Below are positions 5,824 through 62,200 of a stretch of DNA of 64,000 bases, piece after piece. The notes beneath the pieces are model-generated. The model did not search any database. It saw only the letters and a program-made list of their open reading frames with translations, and was not told the origin of the DNA. This DNA comes from Blasia pusilla (taxonomy: Eukaryota). Every line of letters starts with the position of its first letter. Position 1 is the stretch's first letter. The stretch is from contig CM114271.1 in the NCBI GenBank assembly GCA_050084515.1, forward strand, positions 10,168,001 to 10,232,000. The letters run 5' to 3'. The translations under genes were made by a program, and so were the position numbers.

Positions 5824-8800
5824 ATGCCAGATTGGAAGCCGATGGAGGAGACGCCGACTCTCAAGATGCTAAACATTAGACATGAGGGTGTCCCAAACGT
5901 AGACACTCATACGGAGCCAATGGCCCCAAACTCAAGTGAACCGGCCTTCTACGCCCAGATGTTGGATTATATGAAGATTATGACCGAACAAGTCCTCATG
6001 CAAAACAAGCGGATTGCAGAGCTTGAGTCGAACAGAGCTTTGAGTCCTCGCAAAAAGCTCTGCAAGACAAACCTGCCCACGCCATTCACCGGAGTGGGTG
6101 CACTCGCAAGGTGAAAGATTTCCTTATGGAGATGGAATATTACTTTGAGGCGCAGAGGGCAGCAGAACAAGATAAGGTGGCAGTGGCGGTCACCTTTCTA
6201 AAGGATCATGCGCCACAATGGTGGACAACGCAATGGGAAGAATATCTGGGCGGCAGTTCACCTCTGAGTTGGGAGGAGTTCAAGATGCTGATTGATGACC
6301 GATTCACCCCGGAGTACCAAGAGATTTGCAATAGGGTAGAGCTCATGCGACTACGGAAAATTGGGCCCTTAAGCGCTTATGTGAGGGAGTTCAGCGCAAA
6401 GTTGAACTCCATTCCTAAGGTGGATGAGGCATCGCAGATAGCGATCTTCATTGGTGGACTCAAACAAAGTGCAGAGAAGGCCGTGTACAGAATGACGGAG
6501 CTGCCGAACACCTGCGTGGAGCTTTTGAGGTTGGCGGAGCGGATTGGGGACGATGAGGTCCAAACACCAAAGCCCTTTGAGACAAAAACTTTTTCCAAAA
6601 GTTTGAAAAACAAAGGGGCACCCAAGAGGGTCTAGAGTGGGGTTGAGCATGACCAAGGAGAGTCTCTCAACCCATTAGCAAAGCGATAGGAACGCCTTGC
6701 TAAGTCGAAGGGAGCACAACATCCGAAGTCAGGAAATGGCAAGGTGGTATGCTACAACTGTGGTGAACCTGGGCACATGGCAAAAGGATGCTCCAAACCG
6801 AAGGTTAGTAATGGGAGTATGATTGCGTTAGTTGCTAAGCACTTGTCGGCAGAAAGTTTGGAGACCTCCCTTCAAGTCACCAAGAGGACACCCAACTTGG
6901 TGTACCTAAGATCCAAAATTGTTGATTGCGATGTGATGTTGCTCGTGGATACAGGTGCTTTGCACTCCTTCCTAAGCCCAAGAATCATGAAGGAGTTGGA
7001 TGTGTCCACCTCTAAGGCAGACCAGCCCATTTGAGTAGGCTTTGCTGGAGGCAAGTCTCAACGAACTTCCGAGTTGGTACTGGGTTTGACAATAGGATGC
7101 GGAGTATTCAAGTTGAAGGAGAATTTCAAGGTGTGCGAGATGGATGGCATCAACGGAGTCTTGGGGAACACATTCCTGGATGCGTATGAGGTGGAGCTAG
7201 GGAAAAGGCCATTGAGGTTGAGCGTCTTAATTAAAGGAAAACGGATGCAAGTGAGGTTGGTTCGCGAGATGCCCGTGAGGAAGGAGTTGGTGAACGCCAT
7301 TACAAGGAGGAGTTTGACCGAGTTGGAGGATGGATTCCTTTGCTTAATGAGACAAGTGGAAGACACCCTTAGCAAGAAACGCAGGGATCAGACCGTGGCT
7401 TCAAGGGGAATCCCAAGACTGCTACAGAGAGTAGTCAAGGAGTTTGGTGATGTCTTGACGAATGAGCTTCCGAACGAGTTGCCACCGCATAGGGAAGTCG
7501 ATCACAAGATAGAGGTCATTCCCGAATCTCAACCATCTTCTAAGGCACCATATAGATTGAATTAGGAGGAGCTGGTTGAGGTAAAAAAGAAGTTAAGTGA
7601 GCTCTTAGAGAAAGGCTACTTTAGAACCAACAAGTCACCGTATGGAGCGCCTATTCTCTTTGTGAAGAAGAAGGATGGGAAGATGAGACTTTGTGTGGAT
7701 TACCGTGCGCTAAATAAAGTGATTGTGAGAAAAAATTACCCTCTTCCGAGGATCGATGACCTCTTTGATAGACTGTGAGGGGCAAAGTACTTTAGTAGGA
7801 TTGACTTGAAATCAGGATTTTACCAGATTCGGATTGCCGAAGCAGATGTGGAAAAGACTGCGTGTAGAACGAGATATGGCTCGTTCGAGTTTGTGGTGAT
7901 GCCCTTCGGTCTGTGTAATGCGCCTCTGACGTTCACCACATTGATGAAATCCATTTTTCATGAGGATGTGGATGAGTACGTGATCATCTATATTAATGAT
8001 ATACTCGTCTATTCGAAGTCACTCGAAGAGCACGCTTGACATTTGAGGGTGATGTTGTCGAAACTAAGGGCGAACAAGCTGTATGCGAATATGGACAAGA
8101 GTGAGTTCAGGTTGCCCAAGATCAAGTTCTTGGGTCATGTGGTTAGCAAAGATGGAGTTAGTCCGCACTCTATTCTTACAACTCCATGTTGATTATTCCA
8201 TTGATGAGAAAGGTTCGCCTGATTCACTCTTCACTCTACAGAACCAAAAATAATACTCAGACATAAGCATCGCACATCAGAATGAAGGAATGAGTACTTT
8301 ACTACTCCATCAAGAATGAGAAAGCTTCAAAGTGTTATACAAGATTGAGAGGGTACTACTCCCTTGCTCGGATCATTCCTACAGCATGAGGACTTCGTAA
8401 GCGAATGATGATGATAGCTATTTGCATGTTTCTTAAATACTCTCTGAAGTAGGAGTGATCCAAAGATTTGAAGCGTTCTTGATGAAGTTGGTGTCTCTTC
8501 AACATTTGTAACTACCTAGATCTATGGTGCTCTTCTCTTTTCCTAAGATCCCTATGAATTCGTAGAACAAAACTGTCTTAACTACCTATCTGATACAAAG
8601 AGTTGCGCCTTTTCCTATTCTAACTGTTCTAACTATGTGTCGCTTGAAATCACTGTCCGTCTTAGCTTTGCTTCGCTGCTAAGTGTGGACCTCTTTTGCT
8701 TTGCTTCAAGATGAAGCTCTTTCTCCTGATCTAAAGACGAAGTGCTTCATTCTTTGTTCTTGTTCTAGGGGCTTCATTATTCGTTCTTCATGCTTCGTTC

Positions 8801-11520: not shown

Positions 11521-14500
11521 TGAGTGAACTAAGTGCCGCGCCTAAGTCGAATACGAAAACGACCCAAGAGAAGTAGAAAAGTTATGATTTTTTCAAAGAG
11601 AAGTTAGATATTCACTATCCCTAATATTCAAGCATAAATCTATCCTTACTATTTTTGTCATCTATATTATTATGGGAGAGTGCCTTCTTGATTTGTAAAC
11701 ATCTCTATGTTTGAGACGTGGCAATTGGGTAGCAAGAAAATGTTTCATGTGCTACGGGCAGCGAGAAAAAAATTTGAATTTTTATGCAGCATCATTAATC
11801 CCTTTCACAAGCTATACACTAACAAAAGCTTTCAAACTTTTTTTTTGTTTCCCGTGCATTCAAATACTAGTATTTTTTAATGTTTAACTCTATAAATTGA
11901 ACAAGCTCCCAATGGCTTCATATTACTATTCTCTATAATAGGTTCTAGAAGTTAGATATGTACCACTATTGGATGTGATACATATGACAAGGAGCAAAAT
12001 TTTTTATAGATGCAATGTTGTATACAAAGAAATTTATCATGATTTTTGCACCACTTTGTAGAGTACAATCTTTCCCTTTAGACCATATGTATTGCAAAAT
12101 ATTCTTTTTTTCCACAATATTTTGAAGAAAAATTAAGTTTTATTGGAATGTATGATGTAAGAAAATTCTAGTAAGTGCATTGCACGGATATTCTTACTAC
12201 TATTTTCATGCCAAAAGACCGTTTGAAAGAAATTGCATTCAAAACTTAGAGTGTTGCATACTTATTGGATGATGCATATCATATGGGTTGCAAGGGCATA
12301 AAAAACCATGATATTAGGGTTTAGTTCTAATTTCTTTTTGTCCTTTATTGTTCTTCCTTTTCTCCACTAAGAATAGAGCAAGTCCTAAAGGTGGAGCTCC
12401 TACTTGAGTTGAAATTGAAACATTACTAAAAAGATTGCTCTAACCTATGAACTATATAGATCACCAATAATAGTCTAAGAGTCTTGATACACATGATACA
12501 TTAGAAATGTTATGTCTACTCTTTTCACCAAATAATACCCCTTTATCTATAAAGCTACTTTTGTAGGATGGTATGGCAAATGATATGTGATAGGGTGGGA
12601 TGAGTGGTGGAAAAAAAATGAGCAAACAATTACCATTTTACTCTTAGAGTACTTGTGCAATGCAAATTGTATATGATACATGGAGGATACAAAAGTACAT
12701 CATGTAAGCAAAATTAACTTTTATTTTCTAATTTTTGGAGATACATGTCTTGAGGGGAGGGCATGTTTGACATTGCGTGTCAACCATAAAGGTATCACCA
12801 TTGGGAGGCAATCCTCCCATAGTAGTATAGATTATATCATGAAGTGTCTTAATGATCTTTAAGGAAAAAATGATTGTAAATTTAGCGTTTTGAATAGAGA
12901 TTAAAGTTAATTTTGTGGTTGATTCCATTGCTCTTCAAAATATGCATGTGTGCATGCCACCCTTATTGGGTGTCCATTTTATCATTAGTGCTTACGTATG
13001 GGGTTATGGACAAGAGGTTTGATGTTTTCCTTACTAAATGTGCCCATTTTCTTATCTCCAGAAATGGGTTGTCTTTAACTACTGCAATCTTATATTATAG
13101 ACATGTTTTTGTCACTTCGTATTGCCCCCAACTTGTTAATCTTAGGTTACAATAGAGATGCCACCATTAGAAGCCCTCTTGACGGTCATTTTTCTTAAGT
13201 TGTCACCAATGTTATTGTTGAAGATAGATTTTATGGGGCTCCCCTATACCTAAGAGACACTAAGGTGTGGTTGTAACCTGAGTCTATTAGTGCCCCTCCT
13301 TACTTTGCCGATGGATTCCCCATTTTCTTTTTTTCATGTTGGATCTTTTTACTCATTCACTCCCAAAGTTTCTCCAAAAAGACCGTCTTCCTCTTCATTA
13401 GAGGGATGAACCAACATGATAAAACGAAACCATACCACGTCTAGGAGTGAACTCCTTCCTCAACAGCTCAAAGCTGATAACTTACAAAAGGTGGAGGGCT
13501 CCCATTAAGAGGGGGGCTGTATGTGGTCCGTTAACATACATCAAACCTACCTATGGGTGTGTAAGAAACTACAAATGCATCTACCGGCGCCTAGAACCGG
13601 TATTCTTTGTAATGCCAGGCGGTAGAATTTAAGAAATTCCGATAAAACAAGCAAAAGTTTGGAAAACCCCCGACTTGGGAAATGCAGTTTCTTTGTAAAA
13701 AAGTGAGAAAGAGGGGCAAATATTTGGGAATTCCCGATCAGACCCTATTGAGTATCGAAAAAAACCGCTAAGCTCGGAAAATCTCTGCGCCCCCTAAAAG
13801 GCATGGACCTCGAACCTATTAAAGCTCATAAGTGCAAGGATAGAATTAGTACCAGCAGCCGCCTGCCCCACCCCACGAGACAAACACAGGTGCTTCTGGA
13901 ATTCGTACAGCAATTATGTCTTACATCCCTCTTAGACTTAATCGAAAGAGCCAGAGTAAATTCCAGCATGCCTGCGGCAATACCCAATGGATTTTCACCA
14001 TGACTCCCACCTGTCTGAATACATAAAATCTGGCCATAGTCCAATTTGTATCTCCTGGTTCACAACTTGCATTCAAAGTTTCTCCATCGGTCTCTTCATA
14101 AGCAGATGACCCCTTCTCCAATTCTTGATGCTTATGACATGCGGAGGCAAGAAGCAGTTATAACAGACAGATACTGTATACCCACTCTGCCAAAGTTCAC
14201 ATCTCTTGCTCTCGCAAATCAGTTCGCTGGCAATGCATCAGACTTGCGTGCTCAACAGGTCTCAACTCTGCTTCTGTTTTGTACAAGGACAAACCGTGAA
14301 AACTTCCCTTGACTCGCATACTCCATGGCACATTGCACACCAAGGCAGGCGATGTGGATTTCTCTGCTTCGTTTCTTTTTACTCAAACGTTTCCTTTATA
14401 ATCTGCAGCTTGATCGAAGGCCCCAGCATTTACACATCGGTTGGGACGTGAAAGTCCGAACTGCTATCTAAGGAGGTCAAATAAATCTTTTGTTGAGGGC

Positions 14501-14556
14501 CAAATCTACACATGTATACAGCTGCCGTGTGATGATGGTCGAGAAAAGATGTAAAC

Positions 14557-16197
14557 CTAGCTGAGCAGAGGCCTGTTGGCAGTTTGAGGCACGGGCTCGT
14601 TTGGTTCAGAGATCTGTCGGTCCTGACTGGTCTGTTCTTCTCCCTTCCAAATGGATCGGTCACTGCCGAAATCAATGAAAAAAGACTCCTCATCCGCTTT
14701 CCAACCGAGGGCTTGGGTTGGCCTACGGACGAGTCTTTCTGTCATCTCCAGCTCTTGTTGCAGATCTGGTGGCAGCTCCCCTGGAGGTTTGACACTTTCA
14801 ACCATCCTCAACACGACACCCATTTGAGGTCTGCAGTCTGGATCTCGTTGTAAGCACATTAGCGCAACAGTGATGAGCTGTTTGGCTTGCCCGGCATCGA
14901 AATCCGCCAATCGTGGATCGACAACGTCCTGCTCAGCATTGGCAAGTACTTTTCTGATTGCCCAGGCAGGCAGAAAACTTCTGTCATCTGGCAGTGAATG
15001 ATCTAAATGCCTTCGCCCGCTTACCAGCTCCAGGAGCACGATTCCGTAACTATACACATCCATTCTTGAGGTGGCTGCACCCGCATAAACTTCCGGGGCC
15101 ATGTATCCGAAAGTACCTCCAGAAGCTACGGTGTGGGTTCTAGTATGACCAAGGAGCTTAGCCATGCCAAAATCTGCCACCTTAGGTGCGAAGCTCTCAT
15201 CAAGCAAGATGTTCTCTGGCTTGATGTCAAGATGGATGATGGTTTGCCCGATTTGAAGTTCCTCATGGAGATAAGCTAAGCCCTTAGCAGTCCCCTTGGC
15301 AATCTCTGCTCTAGTCTTCCATGGAAGTAATTTCTCCTTGGTAAAAATCCACTTGTCCAAGGATCCATTTGCCACAAACTCATACACAATGAACGCTTGG
15401 CTCCTCTTGAAGCAACACCCTCTCAGTGCCACCAAATTGTTGTGATTAATGCTTCCAAGGGTCTTGACTTCTGCTTCGAAGTCCCTCAAGCCTCTCTGAC
15501 TGTCAAGCAGTTTCTTCACGGCCACTTCACTTCCATCTATGAGTGTGCCCTTGTAAACCACACCATATGATCCACGTCCTAGCTCCTTCCCAAATCCGTT
15601 AGTAGCATCGTTCAACTCTTCGAAGGAATACCTCATGCCCACAATTTTCGATGATACCATCTCATCTGTAGGGGGTCCAGACCCAACTTCCAAATCTTCT
15701 AATTCCTTTGCGCCCTCCTTGTTCTTGGAGAGTTTCCAAGACCTTAAAGACCACAGAACCGCGGCTATGAAGACGGCAACCACAGCTACAGAAATTCCAA
15801 TCACTCCACCAATACCCATACCTGTGTCATCTCGACGACGATCCGAACAAGGCCCGCTTAGGCATCCTACACCACAATATTCAACGCTTGATCCACAGAA
15901 TCCATACTCACTGCAGCATAAATCATTCCTGCAAGGATTACCTAGGTTGCATGATCCGGGATGCGTAGAAGCCACCGACGTATTACATGTGCTCTGACAA
16001 CCTGCCCCGCAAAAGGTTTCTGTGACTCCACAAAACCCATCCCTACTGCAGCAGCGTCCGGTGATACAAAGAGAGTTGTTCGCTTGACGACCACAATCTG
16101 CGGCACTGCTGAGTTGAAGATTTAGAGCTGTGAATGCGATCCAAATAAGCAACAGCACGGCGGGAGGAGCTTTCCTTCTGCAGTTATGTCCATGCAT
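14557..16197 (-). CDS. Receptor-like Ser/Thr kinase with two extracellular hevein-type (CBM18, Chitin_bind_1) domains; non-RD kinase; 546 aa, no introns
   Basis: First ATG is at 16197 (the ORF track starts at a GTG). Hydrophobic signal peptide. Two 8-Cys domains: CGRQANNSLC..CCSRDGFCGVTETFCGAGCQSTC and CNLGNPC..CCSEYGFCGSSVEYCGVGCLSGPC. TM helix GGVIGISVAVVAVFIAAVLW. Kinase motifs GRGSYG, VAVK, HLDIKPENILL, DFG, GTFGYMAPE all intact. Confidence 0.93.
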   Translation of the reverse strand: MHGHNCRRKAPPAVLLLIWIAFTALNLQLSSAADCGRQANNSLCITGRCCSRDGFCGVTETFCGAGCQSTCNTSVASTHPGSCNLGNPCRNDLCCSEYGFCGSSVEYCGVGCLSGPCSDRRRDDTGMGIGGVIGISVAVVAVFIAAVLWSLRSWKLSKNKEGAKELEDLEVGSGPPTDEMVSSKIVGMRYSFEELNDATNGFGKELGRGSYGVVYKGTLIDGSEVAVKKLLDSQRGLRDFEAEVKTLGSINHNNLVALRGCCFKRSQAFIVYEFVANGSLDKWIFTKEKLLPWKTRAEIAKGTAKGLAYLHEELQIGQTIIHLDIKPENILLDESFAPKVADFGMAKLLGHTRTHTVASGGTFGYMAPEVYAGAATSRMDVYSYGIVLLELVSGRRHLDHSLPDDRSFLPAWAIRKVLANAEQDVVDPRLADFDAGQAKQLITVALMCLQRDPDCRPQMGVVLRMVESVKPPGELPPDLQQELEMTERLVRRPTQALGWKADEESFFIDFGSDRSIWKGEEQTSQDRQISEPNEPVPQTANRPLLS

Positions 16198-16705
16198 TGT
16201 GGCAAAGAGAACGTGCTTCTGCACGCTGTGAAGAGCAACCAGAATAGGACTTCTGAGCTGCTAACAGTGCTACAAAGCTAATAAGAACGATCTCAGAGAA
16301 AGTGAGGCCCGCTGGATCGGAAAGAAAACATGAAGCTGCAGATTGCGATTGACAGCTTACGTAGACGGAGAGTGTAGTGAGTGCGAGAAGAGAACACGCA
16401 CACATGAGGTTTACTGATTTTGCCGCTCACCAGCGATTCGGACAGAACGCTAAGAGGTAATACATTCAGGAGCACATACGATACAGAAGAGACCTCAGAC
16501 ATGGAATCTTGCCAAGCACAAGGGCAAGGGACAAACAAACCAGAGAGAGAGCAAAGCCGACGAAAGTTCCCGCGATCTGGGATCTGCGGATACTCGACCA
16601 ATGCACCCTCAAATTCTATCTCGAAAGCTACGAAGTATCAGTACACGGCTCAACTGCCTCCGGGGAAGACCAACGCGAGGAGGTAGATGGTGCAGGTGCA
16701 CCGGC

Positions 16706-17222
16706 AGAGGCGTTCAATTAGTTCAACCGAGTGAACTAAGTGGCCGCCGCAAGCGCATTGGACATTCTTACGAGCTTTTAGAGTCCAGAAGCTCGCTGGC
16801 GCTGGACCACTTTCCATCCCTTTTACGAGTCTCTTTGCTTTTCTTCCGCATGTTGTTGTCATCCAGATTCCTCCGAATCCTCGTTTTGACGATCTCTCAG
16901 GCGACGAGACTAGTTTTGACGAGACTAGCAAGACTCCAATGTCACTCCCTATCGCGCCGAGTCCGTAAGTACGTCGCACCCAAGTAAGGGCAAGTCCTCG
17001 ATGGGCACGGATATCTTTTCCTCTTCGGACCGAGTCCGGCCCTGTCCCGGTCAACGACCCTTCCTTTTAGGGAGCGACCCCTGCCGCAGGGGTCGCTCCA
17101 TAAAAGGAAGTGTCGTTGTATACGCAGGGCCCTGCGTTCACTTGTCAAACGTAGGACGACACTTGTCCGATGCGCTTGCGGCGGCCACTTAGTTCACTCG
17201 GTTGAACTAATTGAACGCCTCT
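16706..17222. mobile_element. MITE-like element with 59-bp terminal inverted repeats
   Basis: AGAGGCGTTCAATTAGTTCAACCGAGTGAACTAAGTGGCCGCCGCAAGCGCATTGGACA (16706-16764) is inverted at 17164-17222 with one mismatch. An extra partial TIR copy sits at 17223-17245. No TSD seen. Confidence 0.8.
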
Positions 17223-18459
17223 TCGGTTGAACTAATTGAACGCCTATTCCCACGTAGAATCTTCTAGCCCACAAGAATCCAAGCATTTGAGCTCAGCCTC
17301 CATTGACCTCTTCTTAGTCCCTTATTCTTCATTTCTTGGCCCTAACAATCAGATCCACCCCTTGGTTCAAACCCTCCTCTACAACAGCAATCAAGCACTC
17401 TATCTCCTTCATTGAATACCCTGGAGACTCCCTAGTGCCTACACCATCTCCCTTGTCTCCTCTAGGCTTGAGGTCAATGGAGTGACTTGGCTGCATTATC
17501 ACCTTGTACAATCTTCTTGACTTCTTTTTGGACAGCCTGCTACTGGGCCTTTCTCTTGCACCACCTCCACAAGTCCAAAAAACATATTCCAGAAAACTTT
17601 TACAAACACCATTATGGGTTCAAAAAATCTCGTCCTTTATTACCTCTGAAGGAACCTCGGAAATGTACATTGAACCTAGTCTATGATTTCTTCAGCCTCG
17701 TCATCTACAAATTTACTCCTAACTCTCCTCTGTGATGTACCAAAGGAATGTCTTTGGGATTCAAGTGGCTCCTCCGGCCGGTTGTAGACGGGATCGAAAA
17801 TGTTGGCGGTCGAGAGCCTTGGCCCCCCTAGGTACACCATAACAGTCCCATGTAACCTGTCTCGAGTCCCACCGCCTTCCTCGGCAAAAGATACCTTGTA
17901 CGCTCTGCAATGTGACACCCATCCAAGATCAATATCCGCTCCGTCCCTGTAATACCACTATGGCAACCGCACAAGTAGAAGGAATCCAACACGCCTGAGA
18001 GAAGAAAAGAAGCCTACGCCGCCTTTTACGAGTTGAGGGGAAGGTGCCAAGGGAAGAAGCTCGCCAGATCGCTCGATCCGAAAAGGGTCCGATCGGCAAC
18101 TGCCGGAATCGCGGGTGTTGCCTGGAGGTGGTAAAAATTCAGTGGTCAAAAGCGAAAAGTTGCAAGGAGGAGAAACCGACGGGTTGCAAAGTGGTCATAA
18201 AGTGAAAATTGCAAGTAGGAGAAACCGACGGGTTGCAAAGTAGAAGACCGTGGAGTACATAGACGATCACATTCAAAAGACAAAATGATCACCAAACATT
18301 TACAAGCACCACCATCGATCGAAAAAATCTTCGCTTTATATCATCCAGAAAAAAGCTCTGAATCGTACATTTGATCTATTCTATGAAATCTTTTGCCAAA
18401 TTATCAAAAACTCCCTACCCAAACGCGCTAGTCATTGTTGGTCGTTGAGTTCTTTGAAC

Positions 18460-31581: not shown

Positions 31582-37686
<6,105 letters not shown>

Positions 37687-56214: not shown

Positions 56215-59200
56215 GTGGATTCTCAATTACTCGAGAGGCCACGGAGTGTCACGCGTGTCGCCACACTGTTGTTATGGGACATGGGTAATCGCGATATGTA
56301 TGGGTCCATGAGGGGACCCCGACGGTTCTCAGCCATGGTGGGAACCATCAAGTTGGATGATTTTATGGAGGAGTTTGATAGTTGGTGTGATGCTGAGAGG
56401 ATGCGGAACCAACAAAGATTCGACCCCTTTATGGCATGGAAGGGACTTTTTTCAGCATCTCAAGGGCCCTCCTATGGATGATTATCACGAGTTTTGGATT
56501 CTCCATGAGGCGGAGATGGAGGCGTGAAGACTATTATGGTCTCCAGGATATGTGTCCCTCACAAGATGTCCGATGTATGATGTGGTGGCTGCAATAGCAC
56601 CCGCTAACCGCACGGAGGATACACTTGGAGGAGTTGTGGACCCGAGTCTTACAAGTGTGACCAACTAAGTACCACCCGCGTTCAACCTGTTGGTCGAGTT
56701 CTTCCAAGAGTTGGGGAGGAACTATCAGGGGTGAGGACTGACAAGCTGAAGTCGATTCATGAGTTTCAGCGAAGAGCTGGAGAGAGTCTTCGAGAGGCCT
56801 ATGCACGGCTCCGATGGTTGATCACAGCAACTCAGGGTGTGATAGAGGCACAAGCGGTTCAGTTCTAGTATGCGATGCTAGACCGCGAGTTGCATAAGAG
56901 AGTGCAAGATGCAACTCTCTTACATGTTGGTTCATCTACTCTCAAGTCTGTATTTTTTTTGGCAGAGCGGAATGAGCTCAACATACTTGAGGAGAGAGTT
57001 TTGACAACAGGCGCATCATCTTCGAGGGAGATGACACGAGTGATGGTGTCTCCATTAGTGCCGCAGCGCACCACTTGAGATAGAGTCATATGCATGGGAT
57101 CGAGGGCTACGGGAGGATACCGAGAGCCGGGACCACAACTTGTTCAGTCATACACTGGGCAGCAAGGCTCAGGTATTTCTTGTTGGACGTGTGGAGGATC
57201 ACATCGTTAGCAAGATTGTAGACAACAGAGTGGAGTGCAGGAAGCACCACCAACTGTATATGAGGCGGCCCAGGGGAGGCCACCCTTACCTCAGTGAGAT
57301 CATTGCCAGAGATATGGGCACACACGTGAGAGATGTTTTGAGCTCCATCTCGAGCTGCGCCTAGAGGAAGGTCAAGGACCTGGAGGTGGCAAAGGATGAG
57401 GTGTATAAGAAGTCAAGGATCTGTGGAGGCAGGATCCCACCACCTGCCAGAGCAAGTGCAGCACTTGCATCAGAGGCAATTTTGGCGAGGATTGCTCAGT
57501 TGGAGCAACGCCTTCAGGCTATGACGGCCTAGCAGGCATCTACATCAGGTGTAGGAAACGCGTCAACTTCTGGATTTTCTCAGACCTAGGATATGGCGGA
57601 AGATCTAGGAGGTATGGGATTTTTGTGCAACACCGCACAGGTGGATCCAGATGCAGTGGTTACAAGAGGTGCGGCGAGAGCTTCTGAGCCACGAGGATCC
57701 GATATGGAGTTGGATCCCCAGAGGGAAGAATCAAGCAAGCAGGCTAGACTTCCCCAATCTTTTACATTGTCAGAGGCTCTTCGGACCCCATCGATGGTCC
57801 CTAGACGGCCTTTGAGGAGTGTTGTTATCATAGATGCCGATGCAGTTAGAGGAGCAAGTGAAGCAAGTATGTCTACTACGCCTATGCAACATTCAACACG
57901 ACCTAGTACTGGTATTGAAGATTGAGTTACAATCAAGCTCATGAGACACCTTAACTGCTACATTTGGCACTCACACGAAGTAGGGAAGCTTAATCTTGGT
58001 TAGTCAATTAAGCACGATTATCTTAACTAGGGTTAGTTAATCACAATTAGGCTAACTCAAGACTATGATTAAGGATAGGGTTAGGGTTGCTTGTACATAC
58101 CCTATATAATTGAGAAGAGGACCAGCCTCCACTCATTCTCTCATTGCAAATTTTGTTCTCCATGGTGGTGTGTGTGTGTGAGAGAGAGCAGTTTTCCACC
58201 AATTATGCTTGTTTAGCAGTTTTCCACATGGTATCAGAGCGGGAGGAGAACATCACTTGAAATTCTTGGTGTTTGAAGAGAGAAGAGAGGCAAGAGGAGG
58301 CACAATTTCAGTTTGGGAGAAGGAAATTTTTATTCTGAGCTCAGTGGGTGCAGATTTCAAGTGGAGCTTTGATGGTGATAAAACTTTGGAGGCATTTTTT
58401 AGGGCTTTCCCGGTCGATTCATCCATCAGGGTTTGAAGCGTCTAGACAGACGCCAAAGAATAGTTCTAGCCATCTTTTAGAGCTCATCGAGAGCTTTCCA
58501 ACGCATCCAAAATCGCTTGATTTTGACACTCTGAGCTCCTGCAGCAGCAATTTCAGTGTAGGAAAGTGCAATTAGTGAAGAAAAGTTATGCAGTTTGCTC
58601 TCTACAGGCCAATTTCAACTAGTTCTTTCATACAGTTGATCAATTTTGGTAAATTTCAGGTCGCTTTCTGTGTAGGAGTAGTCTATGCTTCAATTGGAGC
58701 AGGAGAAAGCCTGAACTTACATTTTTTGTGAATGAAATAGTTTATCATGGAGTATTCCTCAGAAGCAATCACATGCGAGAAGCTAAGACAAGCAGAATTA
58801 CAATGTCTTGAAATTTTGCATGAAACAATTTCTCATGGGTCAAAAACTATGGGAGCTTGTCATAGGTGATTAGGCCAAGCCAGAAGGTGACTCAACAGAC
58901 TTGAATGTTCGCATTTGGAACCAATGCGCAAGACAAGTAATCCATTACATTTCAATAACGATTAGTTCGCCAATGATAGGTCACATCCAAGATGTTGATA
59001 TTCCGAAGGAGGCCTGGGATGCATTGGAAAAGTTGTTCCAGATATCTACAAAGGGCACAAAGCTTCAATTGAAACATCAATTGAACAAAGTGAGGAAAGG
59101 ATCGCAGAGCATCAATGATTATATTTTGAGTATCAAACATATTATTGATAAGTTGAATAGCATTCGAGTGACAGTAGAAGATGATGATCTGATCTTATTC

Positions 59201-62200
59201 ACTCTTCAAGGCCTTCTAAAGGATTACAAGTCCTTTAAGACCTCTATCTCTATAAGAGAAAAGTATCCAACCTTTCAAGAGTTAGTTCCTTTGTTGATTA
59301 GTGAAGAGATACGTCTAGTAGGTAGCGGTAGCTCATCTAGTCTGCAAGATAGTGTGCCATTTGCAGGTTATGGATCAAATAGAGGCAAAGGTCGAGGCAG
59401 AAACTTCCGTGGTCATGGTGGATATCAAGCATATGGAGGAAGAGGCACTCAATATAACGTCACTCAATCAACTACGAATCAGTACCAGACGCAATCACAT
59501 GGTGGTGATGGTGGAAACCGTTGGGGTCAAGTTCAGCAGCAGAGGGTCCCTGAATCTTCCAATTACTGTGGGATAAAGGGTCACTATGCAAAGTTTTGCT
59601 TCACGAAGAAGGCAGATATGAGAATAGTAGCCTTACAGCAACAAAACTATGTGGAGCAACAACACCAAGAGCAGCACCAAGATCAGCAACATTCACAAAC
59701 GGAGCATCTCTTGGTCATGACTCATCATATGGGAGCAATGGCCAAGAAAGACTCGACAGCAGATTGGTACATTGCCTCCGGTGCATCAAATCACATGACC
59801 TCACAAGCGAAATGGTTCAGTAGTTTGGAGCCGGTGAAAGACCCTGCAATTGTGCTCATAGGATATGACACTCAACATCATATCACGCATACCGGTAAAG
59901 TTCCAATAGCATCAGATGGTCTTTGTGCTTTTGGAAATATTTTCTATGTTCCTACCATTGCAAGAAATCTGATCTCTGTAGGACTGATAGTAGAACAGGG
60001 TTATCAAGTGAAGTTTAACGCAGATGGTTGTTTCATTGAAACAATGGATGACCAGACTACGATAGCCAAAAGACCTAGATCTGGCAGAATGTTCAAATTA
60101 GATATTTCTATGCCAGAGATTCAAACAACAATGTATGGTTAAACCGGACAACAAGTCACAGATCTAAATGTGTGGCATAAAATAATTAGACATATGAATC
60201 TTCAAAGATTACAGAGTCTTTCATCATCTAATATAGTAATAGGACTCCCTAAATTAGCGAGTCTTGCTACGTTAGAGGTATGTCCTACTTGCCAATTTGG
60301 AAAACAACCTAGATTTCCTTTTCCAAAGCAAGGTAGAAGAGCATCCAAGATTTTGGAGTTGATCCATAGTGATATGTGGACAACATCACAATAGAGCCTT
60401 AGTGATTGCCAATACTTTGTTTCATTTATTTATGACTTCTTTGGGTATATATGGGTATACTTTTTGAAAGCCAAGTTAGAGGTATCCTCAATGTTCCAAA
60501 CATTTAGAGTTCTCGTATAGAAGCAGACTGGACAACACATTCTGAAATTGCATTGTGATGGAGGAGAGTATCTTTCAACAGAGTTTGATGACTATTTACA
60601 TCAGAACGGCATCCAACGTCAAGTGACTTGCCGCTACATTCCACAACAAAATGGAGTGGCCGAGAGGAAAAATCGACATATTGTTGAAGCGGCACGAGCT
60701 ATGCTGAATGAGAAGAACATGCCTAAGGTGTATTGGGCAGAGGCTGTAGTATGTGCAGTCTTCTTAATCAACTGAACTCCAACAGCAAGAGTTCATGATA
60801 AAACTCCATTCGAAGTCTTCACAAGAAGTAAACATGATTTTTCCTTCTTGAAAGTATTTGGTTGTATCTCTTATGCTCATATTCCTTCTGAGAGACGTCA
60901 GAAATTAGACCCCAAGTCTGAAAGATGTATCTTCATTGGCTTTGCTGATGGAACTAAGGGATATAAGTGCTACATTCCATCCCTTAGGCAGCTTATTATT
61001 AGTCGGGATGTTGTCTTTGATGAGCTTAAGTCATGGTATGCTCCATCTGAGCCTATTCCACCTCTAAACTTGTCTATTGAGGGGGATAATATGACTATAA
61101 ACCAACAGACATTGTCTTCAACTTCCTCAAGTACTAGTGCAGGATTAGGAGAGATTCTAGATTCATCCATTAAATCCGTGAGTCCATGGACGGAAAGAGT
61201 ACATATTCAGTCTGTTAACACTAGTCAGAGCTCGAGTCAGGTGTAGAGATCAAGTAGAGTTAGACATCCAGTTCATAGATTCATAAATGAAGGTTTCCTT
61301 GCGACACATCATGCATATATGATGACTACCCTTCAAGAGCACGAGCCGAGTTATTTTGAAGAAGCTGCGAGTAAAGCCGAATGGATTGAAGCTATGGAGG
61401 AAGAGCTTGCTGCATTAAGACATCAACAAACATGGGAGCTGGTTGATATACATTCCGGTAAGAAAGCTATTGATTACATACGCCCTACAAGAGTTGGGTT
61501 TTAGGGTATGTGATTCTCACTCCTCATTATTTGTCTTGAGAGGACAAGATCATACAGTTCTCATTGTGTTGTATGTTGACGATCTCTTGATTACTGGGAG
61601 CACTGAAGAAATGGTACAACAAGTCAAGCTTAAGTTACAAGCAGAATTTGATATGAAGGACTTGAGAGAACTCAAGTACTTCCTTGGTATTGAGTTTATC
61701 AACATTGGAGAGAGCATGTGGTTACTACAACGACAATATGCTCTTCATATGCTTTCAAAATATGGTATGACGGCTTCTAAGCCAATCTCTACACCGTTGG
61801 AGCAGAGCGTGAAGCTAAGAGTGGATGAAGGATAGCTACTTGCACATTCTTATACGTACAGGTGCATGGTTGGAAGTTTAATCTATCTTACTTTAACCAG
61901 ACCAAATTTGAGCTATGCTATTGGTCTAGTGAGCCACTTTATGCAAGCATCTTGAAAATCTCACCTTGATGCTGTGAGGAGGATTATGCGGTATGTGAAA
62001 TTCTCTATTCAATTCGGGCTTCAATTTGAACCTTCTCCGGATTTTCAATTGCAGGGATTCATAGATGCTGATTGGGCAGGAAGCGTGTCTGATCGACACT
62101 CCACATCGGTTTATTCATTTACTTTGGGTAGCGCAGCTATAAGTTGGGCTTCAAAGAAGCAACCTACAGTTGCTTTATCTTCAATAGAGGCTAAGTATAG

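Follow-up and report, generated by a model that had tools for sequence, protein, structure and literature searches.

The question raised by the locus described here is whether a plant may perceive chitin, or related N-acetylglucosamine (GlcNAc) glycans, through a receptor kinase that carries hevein modules. To our knowledge, every plant chitin receptor characterised so far relies on LysM domains. The locus lies on a 64,000-nucleotide stretch of the genome of Blasia pusilla (GenBank assembly GCA_050084515.1, contig CM114271.1, positions 10,168,001 to 10,232,000 of the forward strand; this whole stretch is termed the window, with positions counted from its first letter). A preliminary reading made from the letters of the window, without database searches (the sequence-only reading), had proposed one gene of this stretch to encode a LysM-independent chitin receptor. 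The product of this gene was identified, with near certainty, as belonging to a liverwort family of receptor-like kinases (RLKs) with a CBM18/hevein ectodomain (hevein-RLKs). It is most likely a lectin RLK that binds chitin or other GlcNAc glycans and acts beside the LysM pathway or with other outputs. This explanation as a whole is regarded as probable, and its core, the predicted coupling of GlcNAc or chitin binding to signalling, is favoured only slightly.

The gene was found to consist of the following elements, all on the minus strand:

14557..16197, minus strand: coding sequence of 546 codons and a stop codon, encoding protein P0001 (open reading frame (ORF) listing and translation)
13499..17000, minus strand: whole transcription unit, unspliced, approximately 3.5 kb (coverage by RNA sequencing (RNA-seq) and the X1 contig)
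16198..17000, minus strand: 5' untranslated region (UTR) of 803 nt with ten upstream ATGs (script run on the window sequence, with the extent taken from read coverage)
13499..14556, minus strand: 3' UTR of approximately 1.06 kb (read coverage)

The ORF was confirmed to be intact and intronless, as the sequence-only reading had stated, with no internal stop codon. Expression, for which RNA-seq had been suggested as a check, was examined by mapping raw reads of runs X8, X9 and X10, which bear the same organism label (approximately 6-12% of each run), to positions 13000-18000, resulting in 286, 257 and 277 mapped reads, respectively. Coverage was unbroken from approximately 13500 to 17000 at a depth of approximately 5-25x, with zero coverage in the flanking bins 13000-13333 and 17008-17508, and no splice joints were found across the gene in the reads of these three runs within the region examined. 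First mates were nearly all located on the plus strand, which fits RNA derived from the minus strand in a library of the usual stranded type. In addition, run X1 yielded a contig of 3,502 nt that covers 13499-17000 and has a single mismatch to it. In all three RNA-seq runs the gene is seen to give rise to an unspliced mRNA of approximately 3.5 kb, and the match of its ORF, domains and expression evidence to a genuine gene is far beyond chance. Within the 5' UTR, an upstream ORF of 73 codons starting at the ATG at 16405 extends across the main start codon, a hint of possible control at the level of translation.

Comparison of the RNA-seq strain with the window identified fixed differences present in all reads, including those at 15738-15741 and 14796, which look like allelic variation at the strain level. 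The four-nucleotide block at 15738-15741 (AAGA to GCCT) causes the substitutions S153R and W154R, changing LRSWK to LRRRK just past the transmembrane (TM) helix. Together with S468G, this gives a total of three residue changes relative to the window with the frame intact. The RRRK form of the juxtamembrane stretch in the RNA-seq strain resembles that of the Marchantia orthologues.

The location of the gene among degraded retroelements and the number of ATGs in its long 5' UTR could be taken to indicate a non-functional relic or an annotation artefact. This has next to no probability, as the 546-codon ORF is intact with all structural and catalytic residues kept, transcription occurred in every run, orthologues exist across liverwort classes, and the allele of the second strain differs by three residues without disturbance of the frame. 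Readings of the locus as a pseudogene or a chance ORF were rejected on the basis of the intact ORF, the conserved residues and transcription.

The part of the protein predicted to lie outside the cell is composed of two modules of the hevein type:

15985..16095, minus strand: hevein/CBM18 module 1, C35-C71, eight cysteines, contact positions S,D,F,F (Pfam, alignment with wheat germ agglutinin (WGA), position readout)
15847..15951, minus strand: hevein/CBM18 module 2, membrane-proximal, C83-C117, eight cysteines, contact positions S,Y,F,Y (Pfam, WGA alignment, position readout)

Pfam Chitin_bind_1 (PF00187) matched two stretches of the protein (E 2.1e-18; 66.7 bits against a cut-off of 27.8), the best of which, residues 34-71, covers profile positions 1-38 of 38. 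No LysM family was matched by Pfam at E ≤ 0.01. Sixteen cysteines were located between residues 35 and 117 (35, 44, 49, 50, 56, 63, 67 and 71 in the first module; 83, 89, 94, 95, 101, 108, 112 and 117 in the second), all of which align column for column with WGA domains. The two 8-Cys folds of the sequence-only reading proved exact in their coordinates, with the codon of C35 starting at 16095, that of C71 ending at 15985, that of C83 starting at 15951 and that of C117 ending at 15847.

A search of all PDB sequences with the 92 residues of the ectodomain identified WGA (E 6.2e-33) and the Arundo donax lectin (E 1.2e-28), followed by pokeweed lectin-C (E 4.1e-20) and lectin-D (E 4.5e-14), Urtica dioica agglutinin (E 1.1e-09), the CBM18 of chitinase 4mpi (E 2.3e-08) and hevein 1hev (E 5.3e-06). 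The top Foldseek matches of an ectodomain model were likewise all hevein lectins, a score that is partly driven by sequence, with the model being weak (mean predicted local distance difference test (pLDDT) 56.4); single modules of this model superpose on hevein lectins with a root-mean-square deviation of 1.8-3.7 Å and a TMt of 0.6-0.67.

Carbohydrate is contacted in hevein by Ser19, by aromatic residues at positions 21 and 23 and by Tyr30. In the structures of hevein and WGA these positions are solvent-exposed and lie outside the structural core. Module 2 of the Blasia protein was found to possess the complete contact set (S,Y,F,Y), and the sequence-only reading was also right that module 1 had lost one aromatic. 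Across an alignment of ten family members, C89, C94, C95, C101, G102, C108, G109, G111, C112, G115 and C117 of module 2 are invariant, with S96 and Y107 being at least 90% conserved.

The remainder of the protein contains the following features:

16099..16197, minus strand: signal peptide, residues 1-33, with hydrophobic core AVLLLIWIAFTAL followed by SSAA ahead of the first cysteine (hydropathy; cleavage site inferred)
15745..15822, minus strand: single TM helix, approximately residues 126-151, followed by the basic stop-transfer stretch RSWKLSKNK (hydropathy)
14815..15591, minus strand: protein kinase domain, residues 203-461, SD-2b type, non-RD, with complete catalytic motifs (Pfam, motif scan, kinase tree)
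14653..14754, minus strand: conserved C-terminal tail motif ELEMTERLVRRPTQALGWKADEESFFIDFGSDRS, residues 482-515, past the kinase domain (family alignment, sequence comparison)

Hydropathy (Kyte-Doolittle) revealed two hydrophobic segments only, at residues 11-33 (maximum 1.79) and 124-156 (maximum 2.69), bearing out the signal peptide and TM helix of the sequence-only reading, and the protein is predicted from these to have type-I membrane topology. A full-length AlphaFold2 model, of low confidence (mean pLDDT 48.5), draws a helix at residues 130-161. The tail motif is near-identical in P0001, P0002, P0003, P0004 and P0005, members of the window gene's subclade from Blasia, Marchantia and Riccia; residues 482-515 are covered by no Pfam family, and the motif could be a docking or regulatory segment.

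The kinase (Pfam Pkinase, residues 203-461, E 9.3e-45) is complete, as had been claimed, with GRGSYG at residue 207, VAVK at 225, HLDIKPEN at 322, DFG at 342 and APE at 367. These motifs are invariant across the ten-member alignment, and by this motif set the kinase is predicted to be catalytically competent. The HLD of its non-RD motif corresponds to residues 322-324 (15226-15234). The sequence-only reading had taken this feature as a pointer towards immune function, an argument that did not hold. Among 122 sequences, mostly SD-2b-type kinases, the pattern H-x-D-[IVLM]-K was found to read HCD in 81, HLD in 27, HRD in only five, HSD in four, and HGD and HND in one each, with no match in three, and HLD is also present in liverwort and lycophyte G-lectin relatives. 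As the non-RD state is common to the whole subfamily, it is inherited and gives no specific immune hint for the hevein-RLK.

The relatives of the protein were identified by a search with the whole sequence, in which 8,000 candidates were scored and 5,743 matched at E ≤ 0.001. Among the best 120 matches, PF00187 was combined with a kinase in eight proteins, all of which are from liverworts. The closest of the matches listed were MpRLK-Pelle_SD-2b6 (MARPO_0123s0006, UniProt A0A176WDS5, P0002) and MpRLK-Pelle_SD-2b (MARPO_0103s0065, UniProt A0A176WS68, P0003) of Marchantia polymorpha, with 61% and 62% identity, respectively, over 90-93% of the protein. The others were Mapa_015372 and Mapa_015373 of M. 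paleacea, R1flu_017622 of Riccia fluitans, R1sor_019448 of R. sorocarpa and two proteins of Calypogeia fissa. The Marchantia and Riccia proteins share with the Blasia protein the same signal peptide, hevein modules, TM helix, HLD kinase and C-terminal tail. The number of hevein modules varies, being one in Calypogeia, two in most Marchantiales (including SD-2b, as in the Blasia protein) and four in SD-2b6. The next-best matches listed were G-type lectin RLKs (named SD2-5, At2g19130-like and At5g24080-like), which align over the kinase only, at 44-48% identity, and share the non-RD motif H[CL]DIKP[EQ]N with the window kinase. They differ in their ectodomain, which consists of B_lectin with or without S_locus_glycop and PAN (PF01453, PF00954, PF08276), none of which was identified by Pfam in the Blasia protein.

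A maximum likelihood tree was constructed from 38 kinase domains picked from the 122 sequences, leaving out mostly redundant angiosperm SD2-5-like matches and oddly named Hevea models. A hevein clade of 16 rows, including the Marchantia, Riccia and Calypogeia members, was recovered with support of 95/90, with 12 rows labelled as hevein-bearing (ten by Pfam, P0012 and the truncated P0005 by eye) and four unlabelled; a hevein-type cysteine core directly before the TM helix was found in all of these four (P0013, P0014, P0017 and P0019), for which Pfam gave no hevein match. On the tree, one change suffices to account for the hevein label, as it does in 96% of 200 bootstrap trees. The window gene belongs to a subclade of five rows (98/96) with MpSD-2b, MpSD-2b6, Mapa_015372 and R1flu_017625, of which it is the first branch, ahead of the Riccia and Marchantia members. 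Mapa_015373, R1flu_017622 and R1sor_019448 form a second Marchantiales subclade. The place of the window gene would suit a complex-thalloid liverwort other than Marchantia and Riccia.

The sister of the hevein clade was found to be a group of liverwort RLKs with a von Willebrand A (VWA) ectodomain (100/99), with a kinase of Ceratopteris falling outside the hevein and VWA clades (93/91), and the whole group joins the G-lectin SD-2b kinases against CRK outgroups (98/96). The same kinase lineage is thus seen on the tree to bear G-lectin, VWA or hevein ectodomains, which fits the domain-shuffled origin put forward by the sequence-only reading. Its suggestion of an SD-2-like kinase was also upheld and narrowed, the kinase being assigned to SD-2b by the names of its source sequences and by the tree; with the ectodomain replaced, this membership applies to the kinase only. 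The distribution of the domains suggests that the hevein ectodomain was gained once, by replacement on an SD-2b kinase, before the split between Marchantiopsida and Jungermanniopsida.

Further features of these relatives were observed. The VWA-RLKs P0034, P0035 and P0081 (R. sorocarpa, M. paleacea and R. fluitans, respectively) possess an ectodomain of PF00092/PF13519, a further unusual one on this kinase lineage, and an HSD kinase. Mapa_015372 and Mapa_015373 share one contig, and R1flu_017622 and R1flu_017625 another; the locus numbers are adjacent or near-adjacent and represent both subclades, suggesting an old tandem pair. The three N-terminal hevein modules of SD-2b6 are near-identical, a sign of recent module amplification within the protein, and a neighbouring model of 108 amino acids (MARPO_0123s0007) that clusters with SD-2b6 may be a split piece of its locus.

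Additional searches were performed with profiles. The ten-member family alignment gave 907,453 matches at E ≤ 0.001, the best 150 of which are mostly fused models with multiple kinases; these 150 extend to approximately E 1e-114 and are silent on the pairing of hevein and kinase elsewhere. Nine of them, whose best stretch started before approximately profile position 100 and which had not been examined earlier, were scanned with Pfam. Six were identified as WAK/EGF or S-domain RLKs, and P0017 and P0019 as kinase only by Pfam; P0018 gave a sub-threshold match to Chitin_bind_1 (23.9 bits). A profile of the ectodomain only, compared with longer proteins, gave 1,670 matches at E ≤ 1e-5, and one of the best 120 carried a kinase (P0002 of Marchantia), with the other matches listed being fungal multi-CBM18 proteins, GH19 chitinases and WGA-type lectins. 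A word-indexed search with residues 30-125, an insensitive method, produced six candidates and one match, a protein of a lichen fungus, and a protein atlas search returned generic plant kinase clusters only.

The sequence-only reading had not recognised this architecture among standard receptor classes. This stands for angiosperms, in that the accessible text of two lectin surveys (PMC5485960, PMC2846932) pairs hevein with GH19 or barwin, its usual angiosperm contexts, and lists no pairing with a kinase. It does not stand for liverworts, as the Marchantia orthologues were described as CBM18 lectin RLKs in Bellande et al. 2017, where the accessions given are cluster members of P0003 and P0002. 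That account assigns one hevein module to SD-2b, and the sequence examined here has two. The combination of hevein and kinase is mentioned again in a 2019 paper (PMC6362431), which also states that ferns have hevein and kinase architectures; this was neither confirmed nor refuted among the best 120 of 1,670 matches of the ectodomain-only profile search. No functional study of any hevein-RLK was found in the published literature, nor was any literature on Marchantia SD-2b and its locus names, identifiers which may be present in supplementary tables only. The accessible text of three broad papers on plant surface receptors and glycan perception (PMC10834447, PMC13006823, PMC13078761) does not mention hevein. 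With this apparently liverwort-centred family catalogued since 2017, what is new here is one further, expressed member that has an intact set of binding residues in its membrane-proximal module.

The protein can also be compared with other systems that bind GlcNAc polymers. WGA, pokeweed lectin-C and lectin-D, U. dioica agglutinin and the A. donax lectin have in common with it tandem 8-Cys modules with the serine/aromatic motif, but these soluble lectins are secreted or vacuolar and possess neither a TM helix nor a kinase. WGA forms a head-to-tail dimer whose sites lie at the interface, an arrangement that two receptors held in one membrane would be unlikely to adopt. Class I/IV chitinases and hevein/PR-4 proteins contain an N-terminal CBM18 of the same family, whose partner in the sources available is a GH19 enzyme or barwin rather than a kinase.

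The LysM receptors (CERK1 and LYK5 of Arabidopsis, CEBiP of rice, MpLYK1 and MpLYR of Marchantia) are also located at the cell surface with a lectin ectodomain for GlcNAc polymers. Their lectin fold is unrelated, however, and receptor function has been demonstrated for them, whereas it is predicted only for the hevein-RLKs. LysM receptor kinases form an RLK subfamily of their own, distinct from SD-2b, to which the window kinase belongs.

A survey of the binding positions in 20 modules of 11 family proteins showed that S19 was kept in 19 of the 20 and an aromatic at positions 23 and 30 in all, with at least one complete module being present in eight of the 11 proteins. That these exposed contact positions are maintained in two liverwort classes speaks for carbohydrate binding having been retained. 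Several points weigh against a chitin-binding receptor. In module 1 of the Blasia protein, the aromatic at position 21 is replaced by D, with F at position 30, and across the family an aromatic at position 21 was found in only ten of the 20 modules; such frequent loss argues for lower or altered affinity in many modules. P0003, P0012 and P0018 contain no complete module, so full-affinity chitin binding has not been universally retained. The first of these, SD-2b of M. polymorpha, is without a position-21 aromatic in both modules, unlike the Blasia protein with its complete module 2. Furthermore, the structure models are of low confidence and add little, and no binding or signalling data for any family member were found in the literature.

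To these points is added genetic evidence from Marchantia. According to Yotsui et al. (bioRxiv 10.1101/2022.12.28.521631), the bursts of reactive oxygen species (ROS) induced by GN7 and by peptidoglycan (PGN) were abolished in Mplyk1 and Mplyr mutants, as was the induction of defence genes by chitin, and complementation restored the responses. As M. polymorpha possesses hevein-RLKs and its LysM mutants nevertheless lose these chitin outputs, hevein-RLKs do not suffice alone for these outputs, at least under the conditions used. These experiments concern 6-day gemmalings of another species and the soluble heptamer GN7, a scope that leaves room for polymeric chitin, other GlcNAc glycans, other tissues or outputs, or a modulatory role.

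This bears directly on the proposal of the sequence-only reading in its strong form, that of a self-sufficient LysM-independent chitin receptor that alone triggers canonical immunity (ROS burst, mitogen-activated protein kinase (MAPK) activation and defence genes). The complete contact set of module 2, the motif-complete kinase, the expression of the gene and the strong similarity of the ectodomain to proven chitin lectins would all suit such a receptor, and the non-RD motif, being subfamily-wide, carries no specific weight. With both SD-2b and SD-2b6 present in M. polymorpha, the loss of GN7-induced ROS and of defence markers in Mplyk1 and Mplyr disfavours the proposal for canonical outputs, and even with the caveat that the data come from another species, one stage and a soluble heptamer only, it is considered improbable.

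A role for the modules unrelated to chitin would be in keeping with the losses at position 21, with the three of 11 proteins that have no complete module and with a LysM pathway that explains the measured chitin outputs. In that case the modules may have a different ligand (a peptide, a microbial protein, or an endogenous glycoprotein or wall constituent that carries GlcNAc) or may form a compact disulfide-rich stalk, and the receptor would serve development or the surveillance of the wall. In the window gene's subclade, module 2 is also shorter in its first loop (C-x5-C compared to C-x8-C, shared with the Marchantia members), and the sister clade couples a similar kinase to a VWA ectodomain, which is unrelated to hevein, indicating that ectodomain identity is labile in this kinase clade. 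A scaffold, however, would not need S19 and the aromatics at positions 23 and 30, which are kept almost without exception in distant liverworts. In addition, hevein-type peptides with a partial aromatic set (of the AcAMP2 type) still bind chitin, and this also speaks against a role apart from chitin, which is considered unlikely though credible.

Both the kept binding residues and the LysM dependence of chitin outputs would fit a chitin-binding modulator of LysM signalling, which might join the LYK1/LYR complex as co-receptor or scaffold, or might be a negative regulator or a sink that competes for chitin. A need for partner kinases is common among non-RD kinases, which is in line with such a role. 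Hevein is absent from the main text of a Marchantia phosphoproteome preprint, and a modulator is judged very improbable.

The explanation favoured here remains that of a GlcNAc-glycan or chitin-binding lectin RLK alongside the LysM pathway. The kinase of SD-2b type, found behind a G-type lectin in other land plants, stands in this family behind one to four hevein modules. The ectodomain would act as a WGA-like tandem lectin for GlcNAc glycans, such as chitin oligomers or the polymer on fungal walls, with module 2 providing a complete binding site close to the membrane and module 1 being weaker or auxiliary. A multivalent ligand would cluster the receptors, upon which the non-RD kinase would signal, probably with partner kinases. 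Because of the genetics of the Marchantia LysM mutants, the receptor would be placed beside or downstream of LYK1/LYR, or would drive outputs beyond the ROS burst, and it is unlikely to be a replacement for the LysM module.

With regard to the surroundings of the gene, a tblastn search of the window with P0001 matched nothing apart from the gene, with no second kinase or hevein copy within the 64 kb. The nearby large ORFs are pieces of degraded retroelements in a repeat-rich setting:

58874-60142, plus strand: copia-type gag and Pol beta-barrel fragment of a long terminal repeat (LTR) retrotransposon
34742-35359, plus strand: reverse transcriptase fragment (RVT_1) of an LTR retrotransposon
6027-6635, plus strand: gag fragment of an LTR retrotransposon

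A short transcribed block was also observed upstream of the gene at approximately 17679-17850, where the ends of reads run into sequence absent from the window with at least two variant continuations. This block probably represents an exon belonging to a gene nearby or to one with multiple copies.

A broader proposal, which is distinctly unlikely on present evidence, is that liverworts possess a second route for sensing chitin or GlcNAc, in which the hevein fold is wired to an SD-2b kinase with outputs invisible to ROS assays of gemmalings treated with GN7. Candidate outputs would include the recognition of polymeric chitin where hyphae contact rhizoids or air chambers, changes in growth or in the wall, and the accommodation of fungal endophytes. 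If this is true, land plants would have invented a chitin receptor kinase independently by this route, and a receptor kinase with a hevein ectodomain would be a second, separately assembled solution to chitin reception. It would also illustrate the ease with which lectin ectodomains (G-lectin, VWA and hevein) were exchanged on one kinase clade in early land plants. The family, a good candidate for a second kind of plant receptor for GlcNAc glycans, is kept across liverwort classes and expressed, and with orthologues in the genetically tractable M. polymorpha, its role is directly testable.

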